From Acutalibacteraceae bacterium (GTDB lineage Bacteria > Bacillota > Clostridia > Oscillospirales > Acutalibacteraceae), in the NCBI GenBank assembly GCA_045659105.1, contig JAZOWG010000201.1:1-55057 (forward strand): a DNA stretch of 55,057 nt, given 5' to 3'. Numbering within the stretch: the first letter of the stretch is position 1; every line of letters starts with the position of its first letter. Under the pieces are notes generated by a model. The model was not told the DNA's origin, searched no databases, and saw only the letters and a program-made list of their open reading frames with translations. Below, piece after piece: positions 31,173 to 53,499 of this stretch. A program made the translations under genes and the position numbers.

Positions 31173-31937
31173 ATGGGTTTTTTTGACAAATTAAAAAAAT
31201 CAAAGGGTGGCTATATTTTTCTTTCCCATTCGCACGATGATATTGAAAAAGTAAGAGAAATAAGAAACAGCCTTGAAAAGGACGGCTTTGAGCCGCTTTG
31301 TTTTTATTTAAAATGTCTTGATGATGATAGTGAAATCGAAGATTTAATTAAAAGAGAAATTGATTCACGTGAATGGTTTATCTTCGTTAATAGCGAAAAT
31401 TCCAGAAAGTCTAAATGGGTAACGCTTGAACGTGAGTACATAACGAAAACAAATAATAAAAAAATCATAACAGTTGATATTGATGATGATAACGATGTTT
31501 CTAAAACCATACAAAAGATAACACACAATTTGCGTGTATTTATATCTTATTCATCCGCAGACAGCAAGATCGCAAGAAGAATTAAAGATAAATTAGAAGC
31601 AAAGGACTATCTTGTATTTTTTGCACCTGATAGTATTCCTACTGGCGCTTCCTATGCCAGTGTTATCGTGAATGCGATTACTGAAGCATCGCAAGATGGA
31701 TGTGTTTTGATTTTAATAACCCCGAATTCCGTCAATAGTTCACATATTCTCAATGAAATAGATGTTGCTTTTTCTAAAAAAGGAAATATCATACCCGTGA
31801 TAATAGGTGATGTAAAATTAACCGACATAATGATGTTCTATTTATCCCGACATCAATTTTACAAATTACCTGAAACACCAACAGATGATGAAATCGACAA
31901 AATGATTGAACAGATTGGGCAGGCTATCATTAAATAG
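31173..31937 (+). CDS. Tandem TIR-domain protein (two TIR-like halves, 254 aa, no other domain)
   Basis: Half 1 reads GYIFLSHSHDDIEKVREIRNSLEKDGF...FVNSENSRKSKWVTLEREY. Half 2 reads RVFISYSSADSKIARRIKDKLEAKDY...ITPNSVNSSHILNEIDVAF. Both show the beta-A [FI][LS]S[HY]S motif, a helix alpha-A and a conserved Glu region as in bacterial TIR_2/ThsB-like domains. Confidence 0.8.
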   Translation: MGFFDKLKKSKGGYIFLSHSHDDIEKVREIRNSLEKDGFEPLCFYLKCLDDDSEIEDLIKREIDSREWFIFVNSENSRKSKWVTLEREYITKTNNKKIITVDIDDDNDVSKTIQKITHNLRVFISYSSADSKIARRIKDKLEAKDYLVFFAPDSIPTGASYASVIVNAITEASQDGCVLILITPNSVNSSHILNEIDVAFSKKGNIIPVIIGDVKLTDIMMFYLSRHQFYKLPETPTDDEIDKMIEQIGQAIIK

Positions 31938-40725: not shown

Positions 40726-42330
40726 TTATTGCGAAGGCTGTAATTTAAGTTCAGTAATTCTTTCTGCTATTTCCTTGAATACGGGAGCGCAGTCCTGCGA
40801 AGCAGATGTGCCGTTTTCATTGAAAACCACAACTGTATACTGAGGATTTTCAAAGGGAAAATAACCGCAGAACCAGGTGCAAAGTATCTCTTCACCGTTA
40901 TCGTTATATCTTCCGGTCTGCGCAGTTGCGGTTTTTCCAGCTGATGATACATTTTCCGGCTTGCCGTTTACTCCTGTTCCGTTCAGCATATTGTTATAAA
41001 GGCAATTGTTTACTGTTTCAATAATATCCTTATCTGTAACAAAATGTGTATCTTCCGATTTATAATATGCATATCCCTTACCGTCAGTATCAATAAGCTC
41101 TTTAAGAATATACGGTTCTATATAAATGCCTTTATTTGCAAATACGTTATATGCTGCAGCTAACTGCAGAGGTGTAGCAAGAAGACTTCCCTGCCCGAAA
41201 CAAAGATTTGCAAGTGCAGAATCTGACGTGATTTCATTTTCATCGGGAAGTTTACCTGTCTCTGAAATCAATGTTGAGCATAACTCGATTCTTTTTCCGA
41301 AACCGAAAAGTTTTGCAGTTTCGCTGATATTTTTATATCCTGTATTAATTCCCATATCTATGAAAAATGTATTACAGGATTTTTCTGTTGCAAGATTAAG
41401 GTCGATTTTGCCGTGTGCGGTATTGTTGAAACAGGAAAACGTATTATCACCGAGTTTTATACTTCCCTTGCATTCGTAAGATTCTGAAACATCAAAGGTG
41501 CTTGTCAGTGCAGAAACGGCAATTATCGGCTTGAATACGGAACCAACCGGATAAGAACTCAGTGCTCTGTTCAGAAACGGAAGATTTTTATCGGACAATG
41601 ATGCTTCAATACTATTTAAATCATAACACGGAATGCTCGAAATTGCCCGTATTTCAGCGGTTGCACAGTCAAGAATTACAACAGCACCGCAGCTTATAGA
41701 AGAGCTTTTTATGGCAGTTTCTGCAATATTTTGCACATCCTTATCAATAGTCAGCTTAATTCCAGCGAGAGAATTATAGTTATAATCGTGAAGTTCTATG
41801 CCGTCACCCTTTATTGCATTATCCGATGCGTCTGCATTAAAAGAAACTGTAAGCCTTCCTGAGGCGTCGGTCAGTATTTTATCAAATGCTTTTTCTATTC
41901 CTGCCACACCTGCACCTTCCGAATTTGTATAGCCGATTATGTGAGGGCACAACAGCTCATCTGCGTATCGTATTACAGTAGAATATTCTTTGATAAATTT
42001 TGATTCTTCAATTGCTTTATCGCTTTCAAGCTTAATGAATAAGCCCTTCTTTATTTCACTAAGCTTGTTTTGTGATATTATATTTTCCGTTGAATCATCC
42101 GCCATAACGATGTAATGACGCTTATATATTTCATTGACCAACGGCTTCATATTCATATCATAAATGTATCCTCGTGTTTCACCGAGCGTAATTTCCCTTG
42201 AAAATTGTACATCAGCAACTGAGCTGTACTTACTTTTCTGGATGGCATATATTCTGGCTGACAGTCCGCCGAAAATGATCAGAAACGCAAAAAACAGAGC
42301 ATATGCCCGCCTGTAAAATGTGTTTTTCAT
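40726..42330 (-). CDS. Class B penicillin-binding protein (SpoVD/FtsI-type transpeptidase, no PASTA domain)
   Basis: I trimmed the start to MKNTFYRRAYALFFAFLIIFGG (TM anchor). It has a PBP dimerisation domain, the GSVFKP (SxxK) motif and a later KTATAQ segment resembling KTG. Confidence 0.85.
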   Translation of the reverse strand: MKNTFYRRAYALFFAFLIIFGGLSARIYAIQKSKYSSVADVQFSREITLGETRGYIYDMNMKPLVNEIYKRHYIVMADDSTENIISQNKLSEIKKGLFIKLESDKAIEESKFIKEYSTVIRYADELLCPHIIGYTNSEGAGVAGIEKAFDKILTDASGRLTVSFNADASDNAIKGDGIELHDYNYNSLAGIKLTIDKDVQNIAETAIKSSSISCGAVVILDCATAEIRAISSIPCYDLNSIEASLSDKNLPFLNRALSSYPVGSVFKPIIAVSALTSTFDVSESYECKGSIKLGDNTFSCFNNTAHGKIDLNLATEKSCNTFFIDMGINTGYKNISETAKLFGFGKRIELCSTLISETGKLPDENEITSDSALANLCFGQGSLLATPLQLAAAYNVFANKGIYIEPYILKELIDTDGKGYAYYKSEDTHFVTDKDIIETVNNCLYNNMLNGTGVNGKPENVSSAGKTATAQTGRYNDNGEEILCTWFCGYFPFENPQYTVVVFNENGTSASQDCAPVFKEIAERITELKLQPSQ

Positions 42331-42457
42331 AATATCACCCCGAAATATTTTTTGTTTTTCGGATGTAATTATTACAAATAAGTAAAAAAAATCACTATAT
42401 GTTGAATTAAAATAAATTTTATAGTATAATGATAAAAAAACTATAAGGAAGATTATA

Positions 42458-43090
42458 ATGCCACTAAAAGATATGCCGGCATTTATAAAATCAAACGTAA
42501 ATGTTAAGAACTCATTGATATTCTGTATTCTCAGCTGCACTTGTCTTGTTATACAGCTTATTCTGATGGATAAAAACGTTATCAATATTGTGTTTGATAT
42601 TATAATTCCGTTTACGGCCGCTGTTTGCTTTGCCGCTTATTCAATTACTATGGCTATGGACAGGCCGATAATTCTTATTTGTCCCCCAACGGTTTATTTC
42701 GTTTCCCTGCTTCTTAACAAGCTGATTCTTGTAGAGGTCGGTGTTAAGGATACCTATCCTTTTATTACTATGATAGAGATGATTCCTTACGCCTTTTTCT
42801 GTGTTTGTGTGGCTACATGTAAATTTAAGAAAATTACTGATATAGTCTTACATATTTTCAGTATAGCTCTTATGTGTGCGAGTGTTGTGCTTGCTGTTCT
42901 TGCTGTGTTTTTCAGAATAATAATTTTTATTAACCGTACACATTATCTTATGAACACCTTTGCAATGATTGCAGGCTTCTTTGCTATAATCTTTATATAT
43001 TTTTCAATGATAGAGCTTGTTAAAATTGCAGGAATTAAGAAACGGCACCGCAGAAAAAGCGAAGCCGTTACAGAAGCTGTCAATCATTAA
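42458..43090 (+). CDS. Hypothetical multi-pass membrane protein
   Basis: It has five or six hydrophobic segments and a basic C-terminal tail (KKRHRRK). The RBS is AAGGAAG. I recognise no motif. Confidence 0.5.
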   Translation: MPLKDMPAFIKSNVNVKNSLIFCILSCTCLVIQLILMDKNVINIVFDIIIPFTAAVCFAAYSITMAMDRPIILICPPTVYFVSLLLNKLILVEVGVKDTYPFITMIEMIPYAFFCVCVATCKFKKITDIVLHIFSIALMCASVVLAVLAVFFRIIIFINRTHYLMNTFAMIAGFFAIIFIYFSMIELVKIAGIKKRHRRKSEAVTEAVNH

Positions 43091-43110
43091 TCATATACTT
43101 AATTAAAAAT

Positions 43111-43137
43111 ACGCTGTCAGCATTTAACTGACAGCGT
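43111..43137. terminator. Bidirectional terminator between the membrane gene and hydA
   Basis: ACGCTGTCAG-catttaa-CTGACAGCGT, a perfect 10-bp stem with A/T-rich flanks. Confidence 0.85.
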
Positions 43138-43148
43138 TATTCTTTTGA

Positions 43149-44894
43149 TTAATACTTGGGACGTGCTGTGTAGCCTGTGTGAAGGATTTCGTGAGCCTTG
43201 TGTGAGTTGGGTTCACCGAAATACTCGGCATAAATAGCCTTTACGTCGGGATTGAGATGAGACTTTCTTAAGGGAAGGTTCTTATCATCATTGTAAAGAC
43301 CTGCAGCACGCTTAGCGCGGATGTCAACGTTATTGTGAACAGAAGCGGGCTGAATGGGCTGACCGCCGCCGTTTACACAACCGCCGGGACAAGCCATAAC
43401 CTCGATGAAGTCATATGTCTTTTCGCCGGACTTGATCATTTCAAGAAGCTTCTTAGCGTTTGCTGTACCGGAGGTAACTGCAACTCTGATTTCGTTGCCT
43501 GCAATTGTGTAGGTTGCTTCCTTGATGCCTTCAACACCTCTTACCTCATTGAACTCAAGATTCTCGAGCTCTTCACCTGTAAGAGTCTCGTATGCTGTTC
43601 TGAGGGCTGCTTCCATAACACCGCCTGTTGCACCGAAGATTGTACCTGCACCTGTGCCGAGACCGAAGGGTGCATCATATTCGTCATCGGGAAGCTGATT
43701 GAAGAGTATACCAGCCTTCTTAATCATTCTTGCAAGCTCACGTACTGTGATAACAGCGTCAATATCAGCAAGGCCTTCAACTGCTGTGTGGTCGAGTCTT
43801 TCAGCCTCGAACTTCTTAGCTGTGCAGGGCATTACGCTGACAACGTAGATATCTCTGGGGTCAATGCCCATCTTCTCTGCATAGTATGTCTTAGCAACTG
43901 CACCGAACATGCCCTGAGGAGACTTACAGGATGAAAGGTTGGGGATAAATTCGGGATAATATGTTTCACAGAACTTGATCCAACCGGGTGAGCAGGATGT
44001 GATAAGAGGAAGGTTTTCCTTCTTTGTATATCTGCCGAGGAACTCTGTTGCTTCTTCCATAATGGTAAGGTCAGCAGAGAAATTGGTATCAAATACCTTA
44101 TCAAAGCCGAGAGCTCTGAGAGCAGCAACGAGCTTACCTGTAACAACAGTTCCCATTTCATAGCCGAATTCTTCGCCGAGACCAACTCTTACAGCGGGAG
44201 CAGTCTGAACGATAACGTGCTTTGAGGGATCATTGATAGCATCAAGTACCTTCTGAGTATCGTCTCTTTCAGCAATAGCGCCTGTGGGACAAACTGTGAT
44301 ACACTGACCGCAGGAAATACAGGAAACATCACCGAGAGGCATTTCAAATGCACAGCCGATATGTGTATCGAAGCCACGAGCATTTGCGCCGATAACGCCG
44401 ACACCCTGATTCTTTTCACATACAGCTACGCAACGACGGCAAAGTATGCACTTTTCGTTGTCTCTGTACATGTGAGAAGCTGAAGCGTCGATATCATAGC
44501 TTGTCTTTGCACCTGCAAAAGCAGTTTCTGTATCGATGCCGTAATCATGGCAGAGCTTCTGAAGCTCACAGGAGCCTGAGCGTACGCAGGAAAGACATTC
44601 CTTCTTGTGGTTTGAAAGTATAAGCTTGAGAGTAGTTCTTCTTGCTTCGATAACATCGGGAGTATTTGTGAAAATCTCCATACCTTCGTTTACGGGGAAT
44701 ACGCAAGCAGCAACAAGGCTTCTTGCACCCTTAACTTTTACAACACAGATACGGCAAGCGCCGATTTCGTTGATTTCCTTAAGGAAGCAGAGAGTAGGAA
44801 TTTCGATTCCTGCAAGACGTGCAGCCTCAAGAATTGTGCTGCCGGCGGGAACTGCAAAATCTCTGCCGTTGATTTTAATATTTACATCAGCCAT
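43149..44894 (-). CDS. hydA: [FeFe]-hydrogenase catalytic subunit (HydA of a HydABC-type complex)
   Basis: The N-terminus has a 2Fe-2S ferredoxin fold plus His-ligated and 2x[4Fe-4S] motifs. H-cluster motifs are TSCSPGW, MPCTAKKFE and EVMACPGGCVNGGGQP. Confidence 0.95.
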   Translation of the reverse strand: MADVNIKINGRDFAVPAGSTILEAARLAGIEIPTLCFLKEINEIGACRICVVKVKGARSLVAACVFPVNEGMEIFTNTPDVIEARRTTLKLILSNHKKECLSCVRSGSCELQKLCHDYGIDTETAFAGAKTSYDIDASASHMYRDNEKCILCRRCVAVCEKNQGVGVIGANARGFDTHIGCAFEMPLGDVSCISCGQCITVCPTGAIAERDDTQKVLDAINDPSKHVIVQTAPAVRVGLGEEFGYEMGTVVTGKLVAALRALGFDKVFDTNFSADLTIMEEATEFLGRYTKKENLPLITSCSPGWIKFCETYYPEFIPNLSSCKSPQGMFGAVAKTYYAEKMGIDPRDIYVVSVMPCTAKKFEAERLDHTAVEGLADIDAVITVRELARMIKKAGILFNQLPDDEYDAPFGLGTGAGTIFGATGGVMEAALRTAYETLTGEELENLEFNEVRGVEGIKEATYTIAGNEIRVAVTSGTANAKKLLEMIKSGEKTYDFIEVMACPGGCVNGGGQPIQPASVHNNVDIRAKRAAGLYNDDKNLPLRKSHLNPDVKAIYAEYFGEPNSHKAHEILHTGYTARPKY

Positions 44895-44908
44895 TTTTCC
44901 GTACCTCC

Positions 44909-46708
44909 TTATTTCTTGATGATAGCGCCGAACTTACATTTTTCAATACAAGCACCGCACTTGATACACTTGGACTGGTCGATAACGTGAGGATTCTTAA
45001 CTGTACCGGAGATAGCACCAACGGGACAAACTCTGGAGCAAAGAGTACAGCCCTTACACTTATCTTCTACGATTGTGATAGAAAGAAGATCCTTACATAC
45101 GCCTGCAGGACACTTCTTGTCAACTACGTGAGCAATGTATTCATCCTTGAAGCGCTTGTATGTAGAAAGAACGGGGTTGGGAGCTGTCTGACCGAGACCG
45201 CAAAGGGAGTTGTCCTTGATGTAATTGCAAAGAGTTTCCATTTCGTCGAGGTCTTCAAGGGTTCCCTGACCCTTTGTGATCTTCTCAAGAATTTCATAAA
45301 GTCTCTTTGTACCGATACGGCAGGGAGTACACTTACCGCAGGACTCATCAACTGTGAATTCAAGGAAGAACTTAGCAATATCAACCATACAGGTGTCTTC
45401 GTCCATAACGATAAGACCGCCTGAACCCATCATAGCACCCTGTGCTACAAGGTTATCGTAGTCGATTTCAATATCAAGCATAGATGCAGGAAGACATCCG
45501 CCGGAGGGACCGCCTGTCTGAGCAGCCTTGAAGGTCTTGCCGTTGGGGATACCGCCGCCGATTTCTTCGATAACTTCACGAAGAGTTGTTCCCATGGGGA
45601 TTTCAACAAGGCCGGTACGGTTGATCTTACCGCCGAGAGCAAATACCTTTGTGCCCTTGGACTTTTCTGTACCCATTGTGTTGAAGAATTCAGCACCGTT
45701 GAGAATAATCTGGGGAACGTTTGCAAAGGTTTCTACGTTATTTTCTGTTGTGGGCTTGCCGAAAAGACCCTTGACTGCAGGATAAGGAGGTCTGGGACGG
45801 GGCACTCCACGGTTACCTTCAATTGAGGTCATAAGAGCTGTTTCTTCACCGCAAACGAATGCACCTGCACCGAGACGGATGAAGAGGTCGAAGTCAAAGC
45901 CTGAACCGAAGATATCCTTACCTAAGAGACCGTAAGCTCTTGCATCATCAATAGCCTTCTGAAGACGTGCAACAGCTATAGGATACTCAGCACGAACGTA
46001 AACATAACCTTCTGAAGCACCTGTAGCATAGCCGCAGATGGTCATAGCTTCAACGATACAGTGGGGGTCGCCTTCAAGAACGGAACGGTCCATAAATGCA
46101 CCGGGGTCGCCTTCGTCAGCATTACAAACAACGTATTTCTGGTCAGCCTGATTCTTTGCTGTGAAGCTCCACTTAAGACCTGTGGGGAAACCGCCGCCGC
46201 CGCGTCCGCGGAGACCTGAATCCATAATAACCTTAATTACGTCCTCGGGCTTCATTTCGGTAAGGCACTTACCGAGTGCAGCATAACCGTCCATTGCAAT
46301 GTATTCATCAATGCTTTCGGGGTTGATAACACCGCAGTTACGAAGAGCAACTCTCTTCTGCTTTGCATAGAAGGTTGTGTCGTTAAGAGAAACGTTGCCG
46401 TGCTCAATTTCAGCACCCTCAGCAACCTCATTGTAAACGAGGCGTTCAACAATACGGCCCTTGAGAAGGTGCTCTTCAACGATTTCCTTAACGTCCTTTT
46501 CTTCTACCTGGCTGTAGAATGTTCCGTCGGGATAAACGATAACAACGGGGCCGAGTGCACAAAGACCGAAGCAACCGGTTCTTACAACCTTGACTTCATC
46601 AACAAGACCGTTTTTCTCGATCTGTGATTCAAATTCGGCAATAAGCTTGTTACTGCCTGAAGATGTACAGCCTGTACCGCCGCAGATTAATACCTGTGCG
46701 CGAATCAT
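44909..46708 (-). CDS. hydB: NuoF-like flavoprotein subunit (HydB)
   Basis: It has an N-terminal thioredoxin-like 2Fe-2S domain, GRGGGGFPTG (FMN/NADH site), the ESCGKCTPCR N3-type cluster and a C-terminal 2x CxxCxxCxxxCP motif. Confidence 0.95.
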   Translation of the reverse strand: MIRAQVLICGGTGCTSSGSNKLIAEFESQIEKNGLVDEVKVVRTGCFGLCALGPVVIVYPDGTFYSQVEEKDVKEIVEEHLLKGRIVERLVYNEVAEGAEIEHGNVSLNDTTFYAKQKRVALRNCGVINPESIDEYIAMDGYAALGKCLTEMKPEDVIKVIMDSGLRGRGGGGFPTGLKWSFTAKNQADQKYVVCNADEGDPGAFMDRSVLEGDPHCIVEAMTICGYATGASEGYVYVRAEYPIAVARLQKAIDDARAYGLLGKDIFGSGFDFDLFIRLGAGAFVCGEETALMTSIEGNRGVPRPRPPYPAVKGLFGKPTTENNVETFANVPQIILNGAEFFNTMGTEKSKGTKVFALGGKINRTGLVEIPMGTTLREVIEEIGGGIPNGKTFKAAQTGGPSGGCLPASMLDIEIDYDNLVAQGAMMGSGGLIVMDEDTCMVDIAKFFLEFTVDESCGKCTPCRIGTKRLYEILEKITKGQGTLEDLDEMETLCNYIKDNSLCGLGQTAPNPVLSTYKRFKDEYIAHVVDKKCPAGVCKDLLSITIVEDKCKGCTLCSRVCPVGAISGTVKNPHVIDQSKCIKCGACIEKCKFGAIIKK

Positions 46709-46753
46709 AATTTATACCTCCAATATTTTTCTGTGAGTTTATAACCTTTTAAA

Positions 46754-47119
46754 TCAAACATTGCTGATAGTATATTCAGCAACTACCTTGCCGCCCTTAA
46801 GATGCTTTTCTGCAACTTCCTTTACCTTTTCGGGAGTCATCTTAACGTAAGTAACCTTGTCTTTGCCTGCTTCGAAGATTTCAACAACGGGCTCGAACTG
46901 ACAGATACCGATACAGCCTGTCTGTGTTACGGTTACCTTGTCGCTGAGTTCAAGGTTGTTAACTTCTTCAACGAAAGAATTGAGAACAGGTCTTGCGCCT
47001 GCTGCAATACCGCAGGTAGCCATACCGACAACAACTCTTACGTCGGAGGAACCTTCACGAAGTACAACTTTGTTCTGCATTTTTTCTTTGATTGCTGCAA
47101 GTTCTGCTAAAGACTTCAT
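46754..47119 (-). CDS. Thioredoxin-like [2Fe-2S] ferredoxin (HndB-like)
   Basis: 121 aa with GMATCGIAAGA...TGCIGICQFEP cysteines. Confidence 0.85.
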   Translation of the reverse strand: MKSLAELAAIKEKMQNKVVLREGSSDVRVVVGMATCGIAAGARPVLNSFVEEVNNLELSDKVTVTQTGCIGICQFEPVVEIFEAGKDKVTYVKMTPEKVKEVAEKHLKGGKVVAEYTISNV

Positions 47120-47158
47120 AAAAATTTTCCTTTCAATTTCTTTATTTATTACTAATAA

Positions 47159-47713
47159 TTAATAACCGATGTTATTATACTGCTCTTTAAGATAGTCTCC
47201 TATCCAGACGATTACCTCGAAGGTATCGAGAGGTATATCACCGAGAACCTCTTTAAGTTCATCGGTATCAAGATTTATCTGTCCCTTATCGGTAGTGTGA
47301 CGGAATATCCATCTTATCTGAGGCTGACCCTGAATCAGAACCGTAATTGTCGAAATTACGTCTCCGAGAGGTGTGAAATCAAGATGGTCGGTGAAGAACA
47401 TTGCTTCAATTTCCGTGCCGTGATTATCAGGATATTCGTCCTCATGCCGTGAAGAGAGCTTCACATCTCCCCCGGTCTGCTGAGCAGCAAGCTTGAAAAG
47501 CGGAATACCTAGTCCGACTTTTCTTGTTGTTCTCGTGGTGGTAAACGGATCCTGAACGTTTCTCAGGAACTCCTCCTTCATACCGCAGCCGTTATCGGAA
47601 ATAAGAACAGTAAGCTTATTTCCATCTTCCGTCAGAATGATGCTGATTGTGTCTGCACCTGCCTTAACAGAGTTCTGTGCAATATCAAGAATATTCAGAG
47701 AAAGCTCTTTCAT
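47159..47713 (-). CDS. Stand-alone GHKL (histidine-kinase-like) ATPase without a HisKA/DHp domain
   Basis: It has an N-box-like NILDIAQNSVKAG and the G-boxes DNGCGM and GLGIP. It overlaps the PHP gene by 4 nt (ATGA). Confidence 0.8.
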   Translation of the reverse strand: MKELSLNILDIAQNSVKAGADTISIILTEDGNKLTVLISDNGCGMKEEFLRNVQDPFTTTRTTRKVGLGIPLFKLAAQQTGGDVKLSSRHEDEYPDNHGTEIEAMFFTDHLDFTPLGDVISTITVLIQGQPQIRWIFRHTTDKGQINLDTDELKEVLGDIPLDTFEVIVWIGDYLKEQYNNIGY

Positions 47714-48450
47714 ACGTATTTACCTCTGAGAAGCTTAAATAATTCCCGCCTTACCTTGTCACCTGAATAAGGCTCATCATCCAGCTCGAGATAATGCTCT
47801 TTATCGCGCATATCCCATAGGTAGTGAGCATCAGAGGAAACAAGAGGTCTTCTTGATTTAAGAAGGGGGAATCTTTCGTTGTATTCTTCGATTTTTTCTC
47901 CGTTGTGAAAGCCTGCATTCAGGAAATTCACATCATCGGGAAAAATACCGAGTGTTGCGATTATGCCGTTGGCTTCACGGTCTACGTGAGCGGGATAGCA
48001 TATACCGCCGAAGGACATCACAATTTCAGCCGCATTGTCAACGGAAATATCTGTTGCGTTTGAAAGAAGGTATTCGTCGGTGCCGATAAGCTCATCCTCT
48101 TCGTTAAGTATTTTCTGTTCATCGAAAATATCAACACGATTCGGAATGAGAATACGGTGCGATTGAATATATTCATCAAAGCTGAGAGCATCGGAGAGCT
48201 CCTCAAAGAGACAAACAAGATGAATGTCTTCCGAGGTCGTAAGCTCCATTCCTGCAACGGGAATTATTCCGTTACGTTTTGCCGCCTTGAAAAATGCCGG
48301 ACAGTTTTTTGCCGAATTGTGGTCGGTTAGAGCAACGATATTAAGACCGTTAAGGGAAGCCATACCTGCAATGTTATTAGGAGTCATATCATCGTCTCCG
48401 CAGGGAGAAAGACAGGAATGAATATGAAGGTCATAATAATACTTATTCAT
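47710..48450 (-). CDS. PHP-domain phosphoesterase
   Basis: It has the YYDLHIHSCLSPCGDD, LTDHNS and SDAHY metal-ligand motifs. Confidence 0.85.
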   Translation of the reverse strand: MNKYYYDLHIHSCLSPCGDDDMTPNNIAGMASLNGLNIVALTDHNSAKNCPAFFKAAKRNGIIPVAGMELTTSEDIHLVCLFEELSDALSFDEYIQSHRILIPNRVDIFDEQKILNEEDELIGTDEYLLSNATDISVDNAAEIVMSFGGICYPAHVDREANGIIATLGIFPDDVNFLNAGFHNGEKIEEYNERFPLLKSRRPLVSSDAHYLWDMRDKEHYLELDDEPYSGDKVRRELFKLLRGKYV

Positions 48451-48773
48451 ATATCACTGCTGATTCTTACGGCTGTGTTGTAAGCCGTATCGGCTGTAAG
48501 AAGAATATTGACACCTTTTTCATTTGCGGTTGAAATGACGGCTTCGTCGGGTCTTGCGCCCTCGCATATAAGGACAGCAGAAACATCTGACAGCTGAGCT
48601 ACTGCGGCAATATTAATGTTTGTCATAATGGTAAGCCATAAGCTTGAAGCCTCTGCCCTGCCCATTACCCAGCTGAGAAGGTCACCTATATATCCGCCTT
48701 CAACAGCCTTGTCGGGATCCGGCATTGAGAGAACCTCAAATGAATACTTTTCAGCTAATTCCTTAACTGTCAT
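48447..48773 (-). CDS. DRTGG-domain protein (copy 2)
   Basis: I trimmed the start to MTVKELAEKYSFEVL (ATG at 48773). It is about 108 aa with the same fold pattern as 50485-50832. It overlaps both neighbours. Confidence 0.65.
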   Translation of the reverse strand: MTVKELAEKYSFEVLSMPDPDKAVEGGYIGDLLSWVMGRAEASSLWLTIMTNINIAAVAQLSDVSAVLICEGARPDEAVISTANEKGVNILLTADTAYNTAVRISSDI

Positions 48774-50049
48774 TTCCGGTTGCTCCTCCGTCAGTTTCAT
48801 CTTGCCTGATGTGCTCAAGCACAACACATTTTCGGTCGTTCGCCACTCCCCTGACGATATCCTCTGCAAAGGCTCTGCAGGTAGGGGCACCGCAGGCGCC
48901 ACAGTCAATTCCGGGAAGAGTTTTCCTGATTTCCTGCATTTTTGCCATCATTCTCATAGATTCAGCCATACTGTCACTGAGTCTTGAGATAGGAGTATAA
49001 TCGGGCAGTGATTCGGTAATGAAGCTGTCGGGAACGAAATTAACATCTGAGCCGATGAAATTCTTTGAAACCGGCATATATCTTCTTACCGTTTGTAATC
49101 GAGTTTTTGCAATAAAGGGATTTTCAATTGTCATAACTCCGCCGACGCATCCGCCGATGCAGGCATTAAGCTCAACGAACTCAATCTGAGGAATATTGCC
49201 GTTCTCAATAGATTCAAGGACCTGAATGCAGTTTTCGATACCGTCTGCGAACAGGTAGCTGTCATTGAGAATGGCGGAGGATTCACCGCCTGAGCTTGCC
49301 CAGCCGATACCTATCATTCCGGCTTCGGAGGTTATTGTGGGAGTTACGTTTTTCTTCATAGCTCCGAGAAGCATAAAATAAATATCGCTTAAGGAGACTA
49401 CTACATCAACATTGCTTTTATATTCTCCGTATCCGTTTCTTATGTAGCTTACCTTTGCGGCACAGGGAGAGATAAAGAATACGCCGATATCGTCGTCAGA
49501 CAGCTCGGGGTGCTCTGCCTTTGCCTTTTTGCGTGCTTCCGCTGCCGCAATCTCCATCGGGGGAAGCATCGGAAGTATGTTGTCCTTAAGATACGGAAAA
49601 CGAAGTGATATAAGTCTTGAAATTACGGGGCAGGCTGAACTGATAACGGGCTTTTTTATGCCTTCCGATTTCAGGAAGATACGAGTGTAGTTTGAAACTA
49701 TTTCGGCTGCCTTAGCAACCTCGTACACATCATCAAAGCCGATATCCTTCAGTCCCTGTAATACGGAATCAACATCATCAAGTCCGTCAAACTGACCGTA
49801 AAGTGCAGGTGCGGGAAGAGCAATTTTCCATTTGTAATGTAAATAATGCTCAAACTTGCTGCACATAGCCTTCTTTGCGTTGTTCGGACAGACTCTTATG
49901 CATTCACCGCAGTCAATACATCTGTCTGTATTGATTTCTGCGTGACCGCCGTTGATTCTTATTGCTTCCGTGGGACATCGTCTTATACAGGATGTACATC
50001 CCGTACACTTGTCCACGTCAAGCACAACAGAGTGTCTGTAAGAATTCAA
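48763..50049 (-). CDS. [FeFe]-hydrogenase-like protein (HydS-like putative sensor, no PAS domain)
   Basis: It uses a TTG start 5 nt after AGGTGA. It has 2x CxxCxxCxxxCP motifs. The H-domain motifs are degenerate: SSACP, SPCAAK and NACIGGCVGG. The C-terminus carries a CGACGAPTCRAF four-Cys motif. Confidence 0.8.
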   Translation of the reverse strand: MNSYRHSVVLDVDKCTGCTSCIRRCPTEAIRINGGHAEINTDRCIDCGECIRVCPNNAKKAMCSKFEHYLHYKWKIALPAPALYGQFDGLDDVDSVLQGLKDIGFDDVYEVAKAAEIVSNYTRIFLKSEGIKKPVISSACPVISRLISLRFPYLKDNILPMLPPMEIAAAEARKKAKAEHPELSDDDIGVFFISPCAAKVSYIRNGYGEYKSNVDVVVSLSDIYFMLLGAMKKNVTPTITSEAGMIGIGWASSGGESSAILNDSYLFADGIENCIQVLESIENGNIPQIEFVELNACIGGCVGGVMTIENPFIAKTRLQTVRRYMPVSKNFIGSDVNFVPDSFITESLPDYTPISRLSDSMAESMRMMAKMQEIRKTLPGIDCGACGAPTCRAFAEDIVRGVANDRKCVVLEHIRQDETDGGATGNDS

Positions 50050-50062
50050 ATCATCACCTTAT

Positions 50063-50488
50063 TTACCTGAGGTAAACACACATCGTGATAGTTGTTCCGA
50101 CGCCTACTTCCGATTCAATTTTCATTTCATCGGTATAACGCTTCATATTGGGAAGACCCATACCTGCTCCGAAGCCCAATGATCGGACGTTTTCGGTTGC
50201 TGTCGAATAACCCTCCTGCATTGCGAGATTTATATCTGCAATACCGGGACCCTTGTCGGCAAGAATTATTTCGATTTTATCTTCTGAAACGTTTACGTCG
50301 GCTGTGCCGCCGTGTGCGTGAATTACCATATTGATTTCGCCCTCATAAAGAGCGATTGAAACCTGGCGGATAATTTCAGGGGGAAGGCCGAGTCTTCTCA
50401 GATTCTTTTTAACCTGAACGGAAGCCTGTCCTGCCGATACAAAATTATCACCGTCGACATCAAAGTGGAAGTTTAACGATTCACTCAT
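50063..50488 (-). CDS. RsbW/SpoIIAB-like serine-protein kinase (anti-sigma-factor-type GHKL ATPase)
   Basis: 141 aa with ALYEGEINMVIH, DKGPGI, GFGAGMGLPNM and VGVGTTI boxes. Confidence 0.75.
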   Translation of the reverse strand: MSESLNFHFDVDGDNFVSAGQASVQVKKNLRRLGLPPEIIRQVSIALYEGEINMVIHAHGGTADVNVSEDKIEIILADKGPGIADINLAMQEGYSTATENVRSLGFGAGMGLPNMKRYTDEMKIESEVGVGTTITMCVYLR

Positions 50489-50832
50489 ATTTTCGTACCC
50501 GTCAATCCGTTAGAATAGAGAGTTCCGCAGGCATCATACATACGCTTACTTGTGGCAAGAAGTGTAATGCCGCACTCATTCGCTGCCTCCACCATTTCGG
50601 GAGTGGGTCGCTTTGAACGGACAAAAACGATACATACCATATCCATCATCTCTGCGGTTCTGATTACCTGTAAATTCACAAGGCCCGTAAGAAGTACAGC
50701 CTGATCCTTTACAAACGCGAGAACGTCACTCATCATATCGCTTCCGCAGGCAGAATGAACGTCCTTGTCGAGAAATTCTTCACCGCAAAGAATTTCAGCA
50801 TCAAGTAATTCTTTTAAGGTACTGATTTTCAT
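50485..50832 (-). CDS. DRTGG-domain protein (copy 1)
   Basis: 115 aa with AVLLTGL...VIRTAEM...IVFVRSKRP, the pattern of the DRTGG family. An ATGA overlap joins it to the kinase gene. Confidence 0.65.
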   Translation of the reverse strand: MKISTLKELLDAEILCGEEFLDKDVHSACGSDMMSDVLAFVKDQAVLLTGLVNLQVIRTAEMMDMVCIVFVRSKRPTPEMVEAANECGITLLATSKRMYDACGTLYSNGLTGTKI

Positions 50833-50855
50833 AAGAATATTTCCTTTGGTGTAAC

Positions 50856-51350
50856 TTATTCGTATTTTGCAAGGATGCCGGGAACCATATCAGCTGTAAG
50901 TCTGCCGTATACGTCTTCGTTAACAGTCATAACGGGAGCAAGTCCGCAAGCGCCGATGCAACGGCATGCTTCAATTGAGAACTTTCCGTCTTCAGAGCAC
51001 TCACCTGCTTCAACACCGAGAACCTCGCAGATCTTGTCAAGAACCTGCTGTGCACCCTTAACATAGCAAGCAGTACCTAAGCATACTGAAATGTTGTACT
51101 TGCCTTTGGGTGAAAGAGCAAACTGTGCATAGAAGGTAGCAACGCCGTAAACCTTTTCTACGGGAACGTCAAGTCCTTCAGCTATCTTGCACTGAACCTC
51201 GTAAGGAAGGTATCCGTAGATTGCCTGAGCATCCTGCATTACTGCCATAAGACGGCTCTTGTCACCGTTAGCTGCAGCAATTACTTCCTCGAGTTTCTTT
51301 GCCTGTTCGGGAGTATCAATAAAGGGAAGTTTACTGATCTTTTTCTCCAT
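50856..51350 (-). CDS. hydC: NuoE-like [2Fe-2S] subunit (HydC)
   Basis: The cysteine pattern is VCLGTACYVKG...ACRCIGACGLAP. The start is set at MEKKISKL, 9 nt after GGAGGA. Confidence 0.9.
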   Translation of the reverse strand: MEKKISKLPFIDTPEQAKKLEEVIAAANGDKSRLMAVMQDAQAIYGYLPYEVQCKIAEGLDVPVEKVYGVATFYAQFALSPKGKYNISVCLGTACYVKGAQQVLDKICEVLGVEAGECSEDGKFSIEACRCIGACGLAPVMTVNEDVYGRLTADMVPGILAKYE

Positions 51351-51409
51351 TTGTGTATTTCCTCCATTCAATTAATATACAAAATAGTGTAAAGGCACAT
51401 AGCCATACA

Positions 51410-51444
51410 TCGTGTATTATATCACAATGTTTTTTTTAAGTCTA
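51410..51444 (-). promoter_or_regulatory. Candidate promoter of the hyd operon, overlapped by a weaker Rex-like site
   Basis: On the minus strand, TAGACT, a 17-nt spacer, then TGaTATAAT (the -10 at the complement of 51416-51421). TTGTGATATAATACACGA (complement of 51410-51427) resembles the Rex consensus TTGTGAAnnnnTTCACAA. Confidence 0.4.
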
Positions 51445-51471
51445 TAGAAAATAAAAAGAAAAAACAGAAAA

Positions 51472-51489
51472 TTGTTATATTATTAACAA
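51472..51489. promoter_or_regulatory. Rex (redox-sensing repressor) operator
   Basis: TTGTTATATTATTAACAA is a near-perfect match to the clostridial Rex box TTGTTAAnnnnTTAACAA. It lies in the divergent hydC/pduL intergenic region. Confidence 0.55.
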
Positions 51490-51526
51490 GATTTTCATTA
51501 AAAGCAGAAAAATATACTTTTTTCTC

Positions 51527-51555
51527 TTGTAAATACCAATAATAATATGTATAAT
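51527..51555 (+). promoter_or_regulatory. Sigma-A-type promoter of pduL
   Basis: TTGTAA (51527-51532), a 17-nt spacer, then TATAAT (51550-51555). Confidence 0.6.
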
Positions 51556-51586
51556 ATATGAGAAATACATTATGGAGGAAACAAAA

Positions 51587-52162
51587 ATGGATAAAAAAGT
51601 TCTCGTAGAAACATCTGCAAGACACGTTCACGTATCTAAGGCAGATCTTGAGGTTCTTTTCGGTGAAGGCTATGAGCTTACAAAGAAAAAGGATCTTTCT
51701 CAGCCCGGTCAGTATGCTTGTGAAGAAAGAGTTCAGGTAATCGGTCCCAAGGCTTCTTTCCCCGGCGTATCAATTCTCGGTCCCGTTAGAAATGCAACTC
51801 AGGTTGAAATTTCTGCTTCCGATGCACGCTCAATCGGTGTTACCGCTCCCGTAAGAGAGTCCGGTGATATCAAGGAATCAGGTGCATGTAAGCTTGTAGG
51901 TCCTAAGGGTGAGGTTGAAATCAGCGAAGGTGTTATTGTTGCAAAGAGACACATTCACATGACAACTGCCGATGCTGCTGAGTTCGGTCTTACAGATAAG
52001 CAGGTTGTAAGCGTTAAGGTTGACTCCCCTGAGCGTTCTCTTGTTTTCGGTGATGTTGTAGTTCGTGTAAACGACAGCTTTGCGCTTGCTATGCACATTG
52101 ATACAGACGAAGCCAATGCAGTTCTTGCAGGCGGCAATGCAATGGGCGAAATTATCAAATAA
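51587..52162 (+). CDS. pduL: Phosphate propanoyl/acetyl-transferase PduL
   Basis: It has two PduL repeats (ETSARHVHVS... and VAKRHIHMTT...). The ATG at 51587 follows GGAGGAA. Confidence 0.9.
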   Translation: MDKKVLVETSARHVHVSKADLEVLFGEGYELTKKKDLSQPGQYACEERVQVIGPKASFPGVSILGPVRNATQVEISASDARSIGVTAPVRESGDIKESGACKLVGPKGEVEISEGVIVAKRHIHMTTADAAEFGLTDKQVVSVKVDSPERSLVFGDVVVRVNDSFALAMHIDTDEANAVLAGGNAMGEIIK

Positions 52163-52181
52163 TCAGATATTTTGCAGAATT

Positions 52182-52218
52182 ACGGTATCCGTTTTTTTCG
52201 GGTACCGTTATTTTTTTT
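52182..52218 (+). terminator. Intrinsic terminator of pduL
   Basis: ACGGTATCC-loop-GGGTACCGT followed by T8. Confidence 0.85.
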
Positions 52219-52317
52219 CATAAATATAACATTAGCAAATTAAGCAGTTAATTGCTGAGATTGACTATAATATTTTTCTTTCATCCGACCAAAATTCAAT
52301 TGAACGGAGGTGAAGGA

Positions 52318-53499
52318 TTGAAAAAAATCATTAGATTATCAACTTCTGTTATTACTGCTGTGTCAATTTTTTTGCTGTCTTTTTTGTTATCTCTGAATTT
52401 AAGCTTTCTCGGTGAAGCATATAAAAGCGATGGCGTAATATATTTGTCGGGACTTATTTCAGAGAAAGGCATCAAAGATAATAAGCCTGCATCTTCAGGT
52501 GCTGTTTCCTTTAATAAAAACCTGTTTATGCCGGTAGCGGACATTATTAATCATAATAAAGAATTTTCGTATGAGCAGAACAGAAAATATCTTATTCCCG
52601 GGGGAAATCTTATCGGAATAAGATTAAAGACTGACGGAGTCCTTGTTGTAGGCGTTGAGAGCTTCGACAGTGTAAACGGCAGCATTTCGCCGGCTGAAAA
52701 TGCAGGAATTAAGATTGGTGATACCTTAAAAACTGTTGATGATATTAAAATTTCCGATAATTCGCAATTGTCTGAAATTATAGTATCCTCAGACGGAAAT
52801 CCGCTTGATGTTGAAATCATAAGAGACGGTCAGATAATTGCGCTTACTATGACACCAGAGATTTGTGCCGCAACAGGTGAATACAAATGCGGACTATGGA
52901 TAAGAGACTCAACTGGCGGTATCGGTACACTCACCTACTGTGATACTGAAAACGGCACTTTCGGCTCTTTAGGACACGGAATATACGATACCGATACAGG
53001 CAGAATTATCCCTACTGAAAAAGGCATTATTTGCGATGCAACCTTAAACGGTGTAACCAAGGGCATAAACGGTACAGCAGGTGAGCTTAAAGGTACTATT
53101 AGCGGCGAAGCATACGGTAGTATTTTTACCAATAATGAAAACGGAATTTACGGAAATATTGATATAATTTCGAATTCCCTTGACATTCTGCCTGTTGCTT
53201 TTGAAAATGAGGTGACAACGGGAAAGGCAGAGATAATTTCAACTGTCAGAGATAATAAAACGGAAAAATTTGAGATTGAAATTGAAAGAATAAGTAAATC
53301 TGCCGAAAATAAGAACTTTGTTATAAAGGTGACCGATGAGGAGCTTCTTGAGATTACGGGTGGCATTGTTCAGGGAATGAGCGGCTCCCCTATTATCCAG
53401 AACGGCAGAATCGTCGGTGCCGTAACACATGTTTTTGTGAACGACCCGACAAAGGGTTACGGGATCTATATTGATAATATGCTGAATGCAGCATCGTAA
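52318..53499 (+). CDS. spoIVB: SpoIVB peptidase (S55), sporulation signalling protease
   Basis: It uses a TTG start 5 nt after GGAGGTG. It has a TM anchor, a PDZ domain (GIKIGDTLKTVDD) and the catalytic block VQGMSGSPIIQNGRIVGAVTHV. Confidence 0.9.
   Translation: MKKIIRLSTSVITAVSIFLLSFLLSLNLSFLGEAYKSDGVIYLSGLISEKGIKDNKPASSGAVSFNKNLFMPVADIINHNKEFSYEQNRKYLIPGGNLIGIRLKTDGVLVVGVESFDSVNGSISPAENAGIKIGDTLKTVDDIKISDNSQLSEIIVSSDGNPLDVEIIRDGQIIALTMTPEICAATGEYKCGLWIRDSTGGIGTLTYCDTENGTFGSLGHGIYDTDTGRIIPTEKGIICDATLNGVTKGINGTAGELKGTISGEAYGSIFTNNENGIYGNIDIISNSLDILPVAFENEVTTGKAEIISTVRDNKTEKFEIEIERISKSAENKNFVIKVTDEELLEITGGIVQGMSGSPIIQNGRIVGAVTHVFVNDPTKGYGIYIDNMLNAAS

Follow-up and report, generated by a model that had tools for sequence, protein, structure and literature searches.

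A DRTGG, kinase and phosphoesterase cassette with an optional putative sensory hydrogenase in a HydABC(D)-type operon of an Acutalibacteraceae bacterium

What are genes for a serine-kinase-like protein, a phosphoesterase and a second, sensory-type hydrogenase doing among the structural genes of a HydABC-type hydrogenase? The question is raised by the window analyzed here, the whole 55,057-nucleotide stretch of contig JAZOWG010000201.1 from an Acutalibacteraceae bacterium (assembly GCA_045659105.1). Open reading frames and Pfam domains reveal ten closely packed genes on the minus strand, running from 51371 to 43149 in the order hydC, DRTGG1, a SpoIIAB-type kinase, HydS, DRTGG2, a PHP-family phosphoesterase, a Tte0891-like GHKL protein, a HydD-like ferredoxin, hydB and hydA. 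This gene order and these domain calls agree with those of an earlier note on the DNA, in which the six genes from DRTGG1 to GHKL were taken as one inserted unit working as a partner switch. The unit that is conserved among genomes is a five-protein cassette (DRTGG1, kinase, DRTGG2, PHP and GHKL), which is tied to a NuoE/NuoF module and in which HydS is an optional insert. On balance, we lean towards the view that the block represents a multi-protein signaling cassette with a pluggable H2 sensor, which adjoins and most likely controls HydABC(D).

In the Clostridia of the gut, of the rumen and of biofuel production, the balance of fermentation is steered by the partial pressure of H2. The arrangement itself is not new. 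For C. thermocellum, Caldicellulosiruptor, Caldanaerobacter, Thermoanaerobacter and C. phytofermentans, a table in Carere et al. (2012) lists an M2e hydrogenase whose gene precedes those of a trimeric bifurcating hydrogenase at a distance of five genes, and M2e was called sensory by these authors owing to the proximity of a protein kinase. The present locus is another instance, with a shifted hydC, of the order recorded in these model Clostridia. What is new here is the definition of the cassette, the optional nature of HydS and the prediction of partners from gene fusions, which sharpens "near a kinase" to the pairs HydS–DRTGG2, HydS–kinase/DRTGG1, PHP–GHKL and receiver–HydC. No mention of the DRTGG or PHP genes in the context of a group D HydS was found in the open-access literature. 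The 2026 follow-up on the group D enzyme TamHydS states that its interaction partners are yet to be identified, which is congruent with the remark in the earlier note that the function of the block is not established.

Conservation of the cassette and the place of HydS

A genome scan with the HydS-like protein recovered 80 species-level genomes at 62–95% identity, most of which are Acutalibacteraceae/Oscillospiraceae metagenome-assembled genomes from ruminant and other animal guts. The gene order is identical, with no internal gap, in all 80; the six inserted genes are complete in 69 and all ten genes in 47, the remainder being cut by contig ends. The conservation of gene neighborhood, which had been proposed as a check, is borne out by this result. 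In the window, ATGA overlaps are read at the DRTGG1/kinase (50485-50488), DRTGG2/PHP (48447-48450) and PHP/GHKL (47710-47713) junctions, and the start of DRTGG-2 lies over the HydS stop in an 11-nucleotide overlap (48763-48773), all four as described earlier. Overlaps recur at the same four junctions in the relatives: −4 or −8 between DRTGG1 and kinase (65 of 76), −4, −11 or −14 between HydS and DRTGG2 (49 of 79), and −4 both between DRTGG2 and PHP (49 of 74) and between PHP and GHKL (42 of 72). The remaining five junctions possess positive gaps of 12–65 nucleotides. This pattern of four overlapping versus five gapped junctions suggests two coupled strings, DRTGG1–kinase and HydS–DRTGG2–PHP–GHKL, and supports the translational coupling that had been claimed. 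In loci L051, L060, L068, L072 and L077 the same ten-gene order is found with a HydS of 62–65% identity under the labels Atopobiaceae, Coriobacteriales or Erysipelotrichaceae, which represents either horizontal transfer or mis-binned contigs.

In distant Firmicutes DRTGG1–kinase–HydS–DRTGG2–PHP is followed by hydC–GHKL–HydD–hydB–hydA. One distant locus exhibits the order PHP–GHKL–hydC, and two others contain DRTGG1–kinase–HydS–DRTGG2–PHP without an adjoining hydrogenase. The position of hydC is consequently variable: it is found after GHKL, before GHKL (after PHP) or, in the clade of the window, before DRTGG1, and it is this position alone that makes the latter clade look "embedded." The order within the HydABC operon is as the earlier note had it, but the embedding amounts to a clade-specific shift of hydC, which elsewhere follows PHP or GHKL. 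Compared with the known hyd operons of the Caldanaerobacter/C. thermocellum type, the structural genes are the same, and the positions of hydD and Tte0891 are taken by a small ferredoxin and an orphan GHKL protein, respectively. In those operons, however, hydC stands between the sensor genes, which are upstream of it, and the GHKL gene, whereas in the window it heads the operon and GHKL is placed after PHP.

Metagenomes were scanned with a four-sequence GHKL alignment from HydS-less loci as the seed, the broad alignment being without a sufficiently conserved stretch, and 80 environmental loci were obtained. Wherever the contig permits, these read DRTGG1, kinase, optionally HydS, DRTGG2, PHP and GHKL. 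PHP immediately precedes GHKL in 71 of the 80, the other nine being contig-edge cases, and the idea that GHKL is a structural part of hydC–hydD was rejected on this ground. Forty-five loci retain the full upstream part; HydS is situated between the kinase and DRTGG2 in 14 of them and absent from 31, a ratio that is biased by the HydS-less seed. In the 31 HydS-less loci the kinase-to-DRTGG2 gap is only 20–50 nucleotides. Downstream of the environmental cassettes one usually finds hydC, HydD and a NuoF-GltD fusion, while the catalytic subunit in HydS-less loci is a molybdopterin formate-dehydrogenase-like protein in six cases and a full [FeFe] HydA in three. The order of the cassette is conserved from gut Clostridia to Desulfobacterota. 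The earlier view of six inserted genes as the unit gives way, since HydS is optional in a five-protein cassette that also exists without it.

Two further observations concern the composition of these loci. The HydS-less order DRTGG1–kinase–DRTGG2–PHP–GHKL is present in L088, L090, L091 and many of L092–L128, often upstream of NuoE/HydD/NuoF-GltD and a molybdopterin formate-dehydrogenase-like subunit. In one genome a complete riboflavin operon (ribD, ribE, ribBA, ribH) is located between HydS and DRTGG2–PHP (L084:10606-14115).

HydS and its putative partners

Alignment of 44 diverse HydS homologues, down to 29% identity, reveals that eight N-terminal Cys, the H-cluster residues C140, C196, C297 and C301 (motifs L1, L2 and L3) and the C-terminal set C383x2C386x4C391x16C408 are invariant. 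All ligands for the H-cluster and three [4Fe-4S] clusters are present. The position of the proton-relay residue C299 of CpI is occupied by A139, and that of M353 by S194; in the M2e subclass (group D) the proton-relay Cys is replaced, and M353 is replaced by Ser/Thr (Land et al. 2020). No PAS domain was matched in HydS at E ≤ 0.01, which sets it apart from group C (M2f), and the chain ends 20 residues past the last Cys. Alignment with TamHydS runs end to end at approximately 44% identity, a lower bound in that the TamHydS sequence derives from a supplementary table damaged by optical character recognition and carries frameshifts. The motifs ISSACP, FFISPCAAKV and LPG.DCG.CG.PTCRA.AEDIV, which include L1/L2, are identical in the two proteins. 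By its conserved cysteines and motifs and the full-length alignment to TamHydS, the HydS-like gene is assigned to the group D (M2e) putative sensory [FeFe]-hydrogenases.

TamHydS is a slow, H2-affine and CO-tolerant enzyme, which has been proposed to be a sensor (Land et al. 2020 and the 2026 follow-up). In vitro it carries out reversible H+/H2 conversion at low rates without a proton pathway, and its C-terminal cluster is not reduced by H2 (2026 follow-up). Both proteins consist of 2x[4Fe-4S], the H-domain and a C-terminal Cx2Cx4Cx16C, in this order and with no PAS, and both contain the ISSACP and ISPC active-site motifs; they differ at the M497 position, which is Asn here and Leu in TamHydS. 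The genetic contexts differ as well, in that hydC here precedes the sensor genes, putting the sensor set within the structural operon, and in that no AraC-type regulator adjoins HydS.

The group C proteins HydS/HfsB, as found in Thermotoga maritima (HydS), Ruminococcus albus (HydS) and Thermoanaerobacterium (hfsABCD), are also sensor-type [FeFe]-hydrogenases with a C-terminal FeS domain, share the linkage to Ser/Thr kinase and phosphatase genes and the connection to the control of fermentation, and deletion phenotypes of the hfs system indicate a regulatory role. In group C, however, PAS is fused to the hydrogenase, whereas here a separate (elsewhere fused) DRTGG protein takes the PAS position; the phosphoesterase is PHP and not PP2C, and two DRTGG proteins and a second GHKL protein are present. 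The [NiFe] system HoxBC-HoxJ/HoxA of Cupriavidus necator offers a parallel in that H2 is sensed by a hydrogenase of low activity, to which the kinase controlling hydrogenase expression is physically linked. HoxBC nevertheless belongs to a class of hydrogenases unrelated to HydS, and HoxJ is a PAS histidine kinase which acts on a DNA-binding response regulator, neither of which is present here. Among the six inserted proteins, Pfam at E ≤ 0.01 finds no DNA-binding, receiver, HisKA, PAS, STAS or PP2C domain, and neither a HisKA/DHp phospho-acceptor nor a receiver exists in the window. The earlier note had listed the first four domains as missing and had concluded that the block fits neither the canonical two-component scheme nor that of a PAS-HydS; both statements stand.

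Conservation of residues in the other proteins was judged from 45–81 distant homologues, which are only 30–45% identical to those of the window. The kinase matches the NCBIfam anti-sigma F factor family TIGR01925 (E = 5.7e-17, below the equivalog cut-off) and, in a profile search of the PDB, SpoIIAB structures at 1e-11. A natural DRTGG1–kinase fusion was modeled by AlphaFold with a predicted local distance difference test score (pLDDT) of 90 and a predicted template modeling score (pTM) of 0.83, the linker being disordered. Its kinase half superposes in Foldseek on SpoIIAB (1TIL; TM-score 0.85, 1.9 Å) and also on RsbW. The N-box E49/N53, the G1 motif D78xGxG, AMxxGYSTA and the G2 motif GFGAGMG are conserved. 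Both sequence and model place the kinase in the SpoIIAB/RsbW family of GHKL serine kinases, and phosphorylation is predicted.

The DRTGG half of the same model matches 3L31, 2IOJ (TM-score 0.77) and the N-domain of HPrK (1KO7), with no STAS structures among the fold matches. In 45 distant homologues of DRTGG-1, residues D32, S35, D36, T49 and K74 are at least 97% conserved; D31, L33, S34 and T48 are conserved in DRTGG-2. The two paralogues have in common D-x-[LM]-S and a Thr (D32/S35/T49 and D31/S34/T48). Membership of the DRTGG family is indicated for DRTGG-2 by a Pfam score above the cut-off and for DRTGG-1 by one slightly below the gathering score of 25.2 bits, together with the fold match via the fusion homologue. 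Profile-to-PDB alignments were too weak to cover the motif and to establish how general D-x-x-S is across DRTGG domains, and the site stays a candidate.

The PHP protein carries the complete ligand set of its family (HxH, DH, E, H, H, DxH), with H9, H11, D43/H44, E69, H77, H155, D207 and H209 at least 97% conserved in 62 sequences. It is most closely related to phosphoesterases acting on nucleotides, of the pAp phosphatase and RNase AM type, and not to the CpsB/YwqE protein phosphatases. Within residues 9–17 (48426-48400) the HxH is followed by a conserved C-x3-C/SPC (C13, C17), where related PHP enzymes carry SDG; the motif could provide either a cysteine sensitive to redox state or a variant ligand for the metal. 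The orphan GHKL protein matches the profiles of histidine-kinase catalytic and ATP-binding domains (KinB 3D36, 7e-12) and of MutL. Conserved in 81 sequences are D10/N14, D40xGxG, the lid DPFxTT..GLG and H110-x-D112-x-x-P115-L-G117; a single-sequence structure model was unusable (pLDDT 35). By these residues the kinase, PHP and GHKL proteins retain their catalytic motifs. The C-terminal GHKL motif H-x-D-x-x-P-L-G (residues 110–117, 47384-47362) is at least 97% conserved in the 81 homologues. Its P-L spacing recalls, by eye only, the H-box of histidine kinases, and H110 is Ser in three members of the window's own clade.

Gene fusions provide a second line of evidence. Counted among cluster representatives at 50% identity, HydS carries a C-terminal DRTGG in six independent clusters, at the position of the group C PAS, and an N-terminal DRTGG, which aligns with DRTGG1, in two. 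An N-terminal HATPase_c_2 (kinase) domain is found on HydS in one cluster of seven members, on contigs of up to 347 kb. The DRTGG1–kinase fusion comprises at least 120 protein clusters, including those of the cultured Thermosediminibacter, Caldanaerovirga and Thermovenabulum, and the pTM of its model, obtained despite the disordered linker, suggests a defined interface between the two domains. That such fusions are assembly artefacts was considered and rejected, since several HydS fusion clusters hold more than one member, equal in length and drawn from independent assemblies, in one case from an isolate. Together with the receiver–HydC fusions described next, the natural fusions speak for a single physical complex, and for the enzyme itself being a target.

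A receiver is fused to a NuoE-like HydC in L124, L133 (4565-5440) and L169, which for L133 was confirmed by Pfam; the fusion immediately follows a HydS-less cassette and a protein with receiver and GCV_H-like parts. The proposal in the earlier note that the block acts directly on the hydrogenase complex receives some support from these receiver–HydC fusions in related loci.

A proposed mechanism and its competitors

The signaling mechanism that we infer is as follows. DRTGG1, the kinase, HydS and DRTGG2 would form one complex, in which the DRTGG domains serve as HydS adaptors and DRTGG2 as the transmitter, the role that PAS has in group C HydS. Binding or turnover of H2 at HydS would alter the activity or partner choice of the kinase, which would phosphorylate Ser/Thr residues, the best candidates being S35/T49 in DRTGG1 and S34/T48 in DRTGG2. 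PHP would reset the system, while GHKL would contribute a second ATP-dependent step towards the output. The latter would consist of control at the protein level of the NuoE/NuoF module (HydC/HydB), or would involve a regulator encoded elsewhere, such as Rex, and would not be direct binding to DNA. In its working the cassette resembles a partner switch or a HoxJ-type sensor, and it is a member of neither family.

Several points weigh against such a mechanism. The cassette occurs without HydS in many organisms, which implies that H2 is neither the sole nor the original input. The window contains no output domain, and there is no Rex or sigma gene nearby. Tte0891 was not identified among HydA, B, C and D recovered with His-tagged HydC of Caldanaerobacter. 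The conserved Thr of the DRTGG proteins is part of the family-wide T-G signature, and the Ser/Thr residues need not be phospho-acceptors; the DRTGG fold is not STAS; and the closest relatives of PHP hydrolyze nucleotides rather than phosphoproteins.

More tentatively, the five proteins may constitute an undescribed and widespread signaling system for redox enzymes of the NuoE/NuoF type (HydABC/Bfu family). Its inputs would be interchangeable, HydS being the one for H2, and it would act on the enzyme, for example via receivers fused to HydC, rather than on DNA. Should this hold, group D HydS would pass on its signal by way of DRTGG domains, and a function would for the first time be assigned to that domain. 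The loci described above suggest that regulation by the cassette extends to formate dehydrogenases of this enzyme family.

The partner switch of the earlier note would, in its strict form, have the kinase change partners, binding now a DRTGG antagonist and now its target (a sigma factor, Rex or HydABC), and phosphorylating a DRTGG Ser in a reaction reversed by PHP. The likeness to the SpoIIAB-SpoIIAA-SpoIIE and RsbW-RsbV-RsbU modules is considerable, in that SpoIIAB and RsbW are the closest relatives of the kinase in sequence and structure, with the same layout of the ATP lid, a small alpha/beta protein (DRTGG1) is coupled or fused to it, D-x-[LM]-S and Thr are kept in both DRTGG paralogues, and a phosphoesterase is always present and encoded alongside. 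By membership, however, the block is not a partner switch. A STAS antagonist and a PP2C phosphatase are both missing from it, and the operons inspected, together with their immediate flanks, yielded no gene for a sigma factor. The small partner is a DRTGG protein, which is unlike STAS and matches DRTGG/HPrK-N structures, and its frequent covalent fusion to the kinase is ill-suited to partner exchange. With PHP resembling nucleotide phosphoesterases and the second GHKL protein left without a role, we consider a strict partner switch unlikely.

Less probable again is a role outside signaling, the proteins being assembly, cofactor-handling or repair factors for the NuoE/HydD/NuoF flavin–iron-sulfur module, in which the GHKL proteins would work as ATP-driven factors resembling chaperones and the phosphoesterase would have a nucleotide or flavin cofactor as its substrate. 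It would explain why the cassette tracks NuoE/HydD/NuoF whether the catalytic subunit is a hydrogenase or a formate dehydrogenase, and it is consistent with the tight translational coupling, which is typical of complexes, with the affinity of PHP to nucleotide phosphoesterases, with the riboflavin operon inside one cassette and with the lack of an output domain in the window. Yet active Caldanaerobacter HydABCD has been made in, and purified from, E. coli with a synthetic operon devoid of the upstream five genes. Furthermore, the kinase family is known only for regulatory phosphorylation of Ser, a sensor-type hydrogenase has no obvious assembly role, and the recurrent neighbors are regulatory: single-domain receivers follow the GHKL gene in some relatives, a divergent PAS histidine kinase and sigma-54 regulator adjoin HydS cassettes in others, and Rex is found as well.

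It appears distinctly improbable that HydS is a working hydrogenase which, with the small proteins as subunits, makes up a second, low-rate H2-oxidizing or H2-evolving enzyme exchanging electrons with HydABC or ferredoxin. TamHydS does catalyze reversible H+/H2 conversion, the N-terminal electron-transfer clusters of HydS are kept and the gene is predicted to be co-transcribed with HydABC, but TamHydS rates are low, the proton pathway is missing (A139), the partners are kinases and phosphoesterases and not redox proteins, and the cassette exists without HydS. Signaling by a small nucleotide, which PHP would degrade, the DRTGG domains bind and the GHKL proteins respond to, deserves very little credence: PHP has pAp phosphatase and RNase AM-type enzymes as its best matches, DRTGG domains occur in nucleotide-regulated CBS pyrophosphatases and one module is followed by a GGDEF/EAL protein, but the last is a single case, the conserved set showed no gene for a cyclase or synthase, and in CBS pyrophosphatases the nucleotide is bound by the CBS pair and not by DRTGG.

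Operon boundaries, the Rex-type box and neighboring genes

The features of the locus are given in Table 1. Pfam matches the subunit set of HydABC(D): a NuoE-like HydC, a NuoF-like HydB with flavin mononucleotide (FMN)/NADH and FeS domains, and a HydA with the H-domain and the required NuoG-like N-terminus. By domain content the structural genes are those of a HydABC(D)-type NADH/ferredoxin-dependent hydrogenase, for which bifurcation is predicted. The Caldanaerobacter operon reads hydC-tte0891-hydD-hydB-hydA, and its HydA–D co-purify. Our small ferredoxin, which hits an NCBIfam 2Fe-2S ferredoxin family under the family cut-off, corresponds to HydD by position, size and domain type, and the orphan GHKL protein to Tte0891 by position, rather than by sequence comparison. 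The true start of hydC is likely the ATG at 51350, which is preceded by GGAGG.

Table 1. Features of the hydrogenase operon in the window, in the direction of transcription
Feature	Position	Strand	Description
Rex-type operator-like palindrome TTGTTATATTATTAACAA	51472..51489	.	Between divergent pduL-like gene and hydC
Operon promoter (predicted)	51416..51444	-	-35 TAGACT, 17-nt spacer, extended -10 TG-n-TATAAT
hydC, NuoE-like [2Fe-2S] subunit	50856..51371	-	Pfam 2Fe-2S_thioredx, E = 5.9e-50
DRTGG-1, single-domain, 115 aa	50485..50832	-	Pfam DRTGG, 23.0 bits
SpoIIAB/RsbW-type serine-kinase-like GHKL protein, 141 aa	50063..50488	-	Pfam HATPase_c_2
HydS, group D (M2e) putative sensory [FeFe]-hydrogenase, 428 aa, TTG start	48763..50049	-	Pfam 2x Fer4 + Fe_hyd_lg_C + FeS PF04060
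DRTGG-2, 108 aa	48447..48773	-	Pfam DRTGG, 30.8 bits, over cut-off
PHP-family metal-dependent phosphoesterase, 246 aa	47710..48450	-	Pfam PHP
Tte0891-like orphan GHKL protein, 184 aa	47159..47713	-	Pfam HATPase_c; ATP-binding domain of histidine-kinase type + unique C-terminal domain
Small thioredoxin-like [2Fe-2S] ferredoxin, 121 aa	46754..47119	-	Pfam 2Fe-2S_thioredx
hydB, NuoF-like FMN/NADH subunit	44909..46708	-	Pfam Complex1_51K, NADH_4Fe-4S, Fer4
hydA, catalytic group A [FeFe]-hydrogenase subunit	43149..44894	-	Pfam Fe_hyd_lg_C (E = 1.7e-102), Fe_hyd_SSU, Fer2_4, NADH-G_4Fe-4S_3
Intrinsic-terminator-like hairpin at operon end	43111..43137	-	11-bp stem, 6 GC pairs, then T-run

A single strong promoter (51444-51416) and a single terminator (43137-43111) enclose all ten genes, internal signals being unconvincing. 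The former is, by consensus match, the top promoter-like site of the region, with 10/12 consensus matches plus the TG extension; the hairpin is terminator-like when read from either strand. A search of 42000-53000 for leader RNAs against Rfam (E ≤ 0.1) matched no family.

The palindrome upstream of hydC (51472-51489) has one mismatch to TTGTTAANNNNTTAACAA and is situated 28 nucleotides upstream of the −35 element. Boxes of this type with up to two mismatches occur within 300 nucleotides upstream of hydC in 29 of 74 related loci. They are strongly enriched at hydC, since 29 of the 44 matches in 1.19 Mb lie in these 22 kb. In C. thermocellum Rex binds to a site ahead of the orthologous hydC..hydA unit, and C. 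bescii likewise has a Rex site upstream of this unit. From this we surmise that the box functions as a Rex operator, and that Rex, responding to NADH/NAD+, probably governs transcription of the entire operon as a separate layer of control. A Rex gene was found neither in the window nor in loci L001–L080, and a scan of the operon and of ~16 kb beyond the hydA end brought up no sequestered output protein (sigma or other); the flanks of the window contain housekeeping and sporulation genes. In two loci of the Thermosediminibacter/Tepidanaerobacter type (L082:7548-8180 and L087:7372-8004) the Rex gene overlaps the start of the DRTGG–kinase fusion by 4 nucleotides, which suggests that Rex is co-translated with the cassette there.

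Divergent from the hydrogenase operon is a gene for a PduL-type phosphate propanoyl/acetyltransferase (51572-52162, plus strand; PF06130, E = 3.6e-82), and a single regulatory region under redox control may serve both H2 production and the acetate branch. Elsewhere in the window, a 254-residue protein with two TIR-type domains (matches to TIR_2 and ThsB_TIR) is encoded at 31173-31937 on the plus strand, alone among housekeeping genes, and may be a defense-related orphan. Lastly, the gene for a 465-residue DUF4304 protein starts 14 nucleotides before the stop of the SpoIVB peptidase gene (52252-53499), the overlap being 53486-53499.

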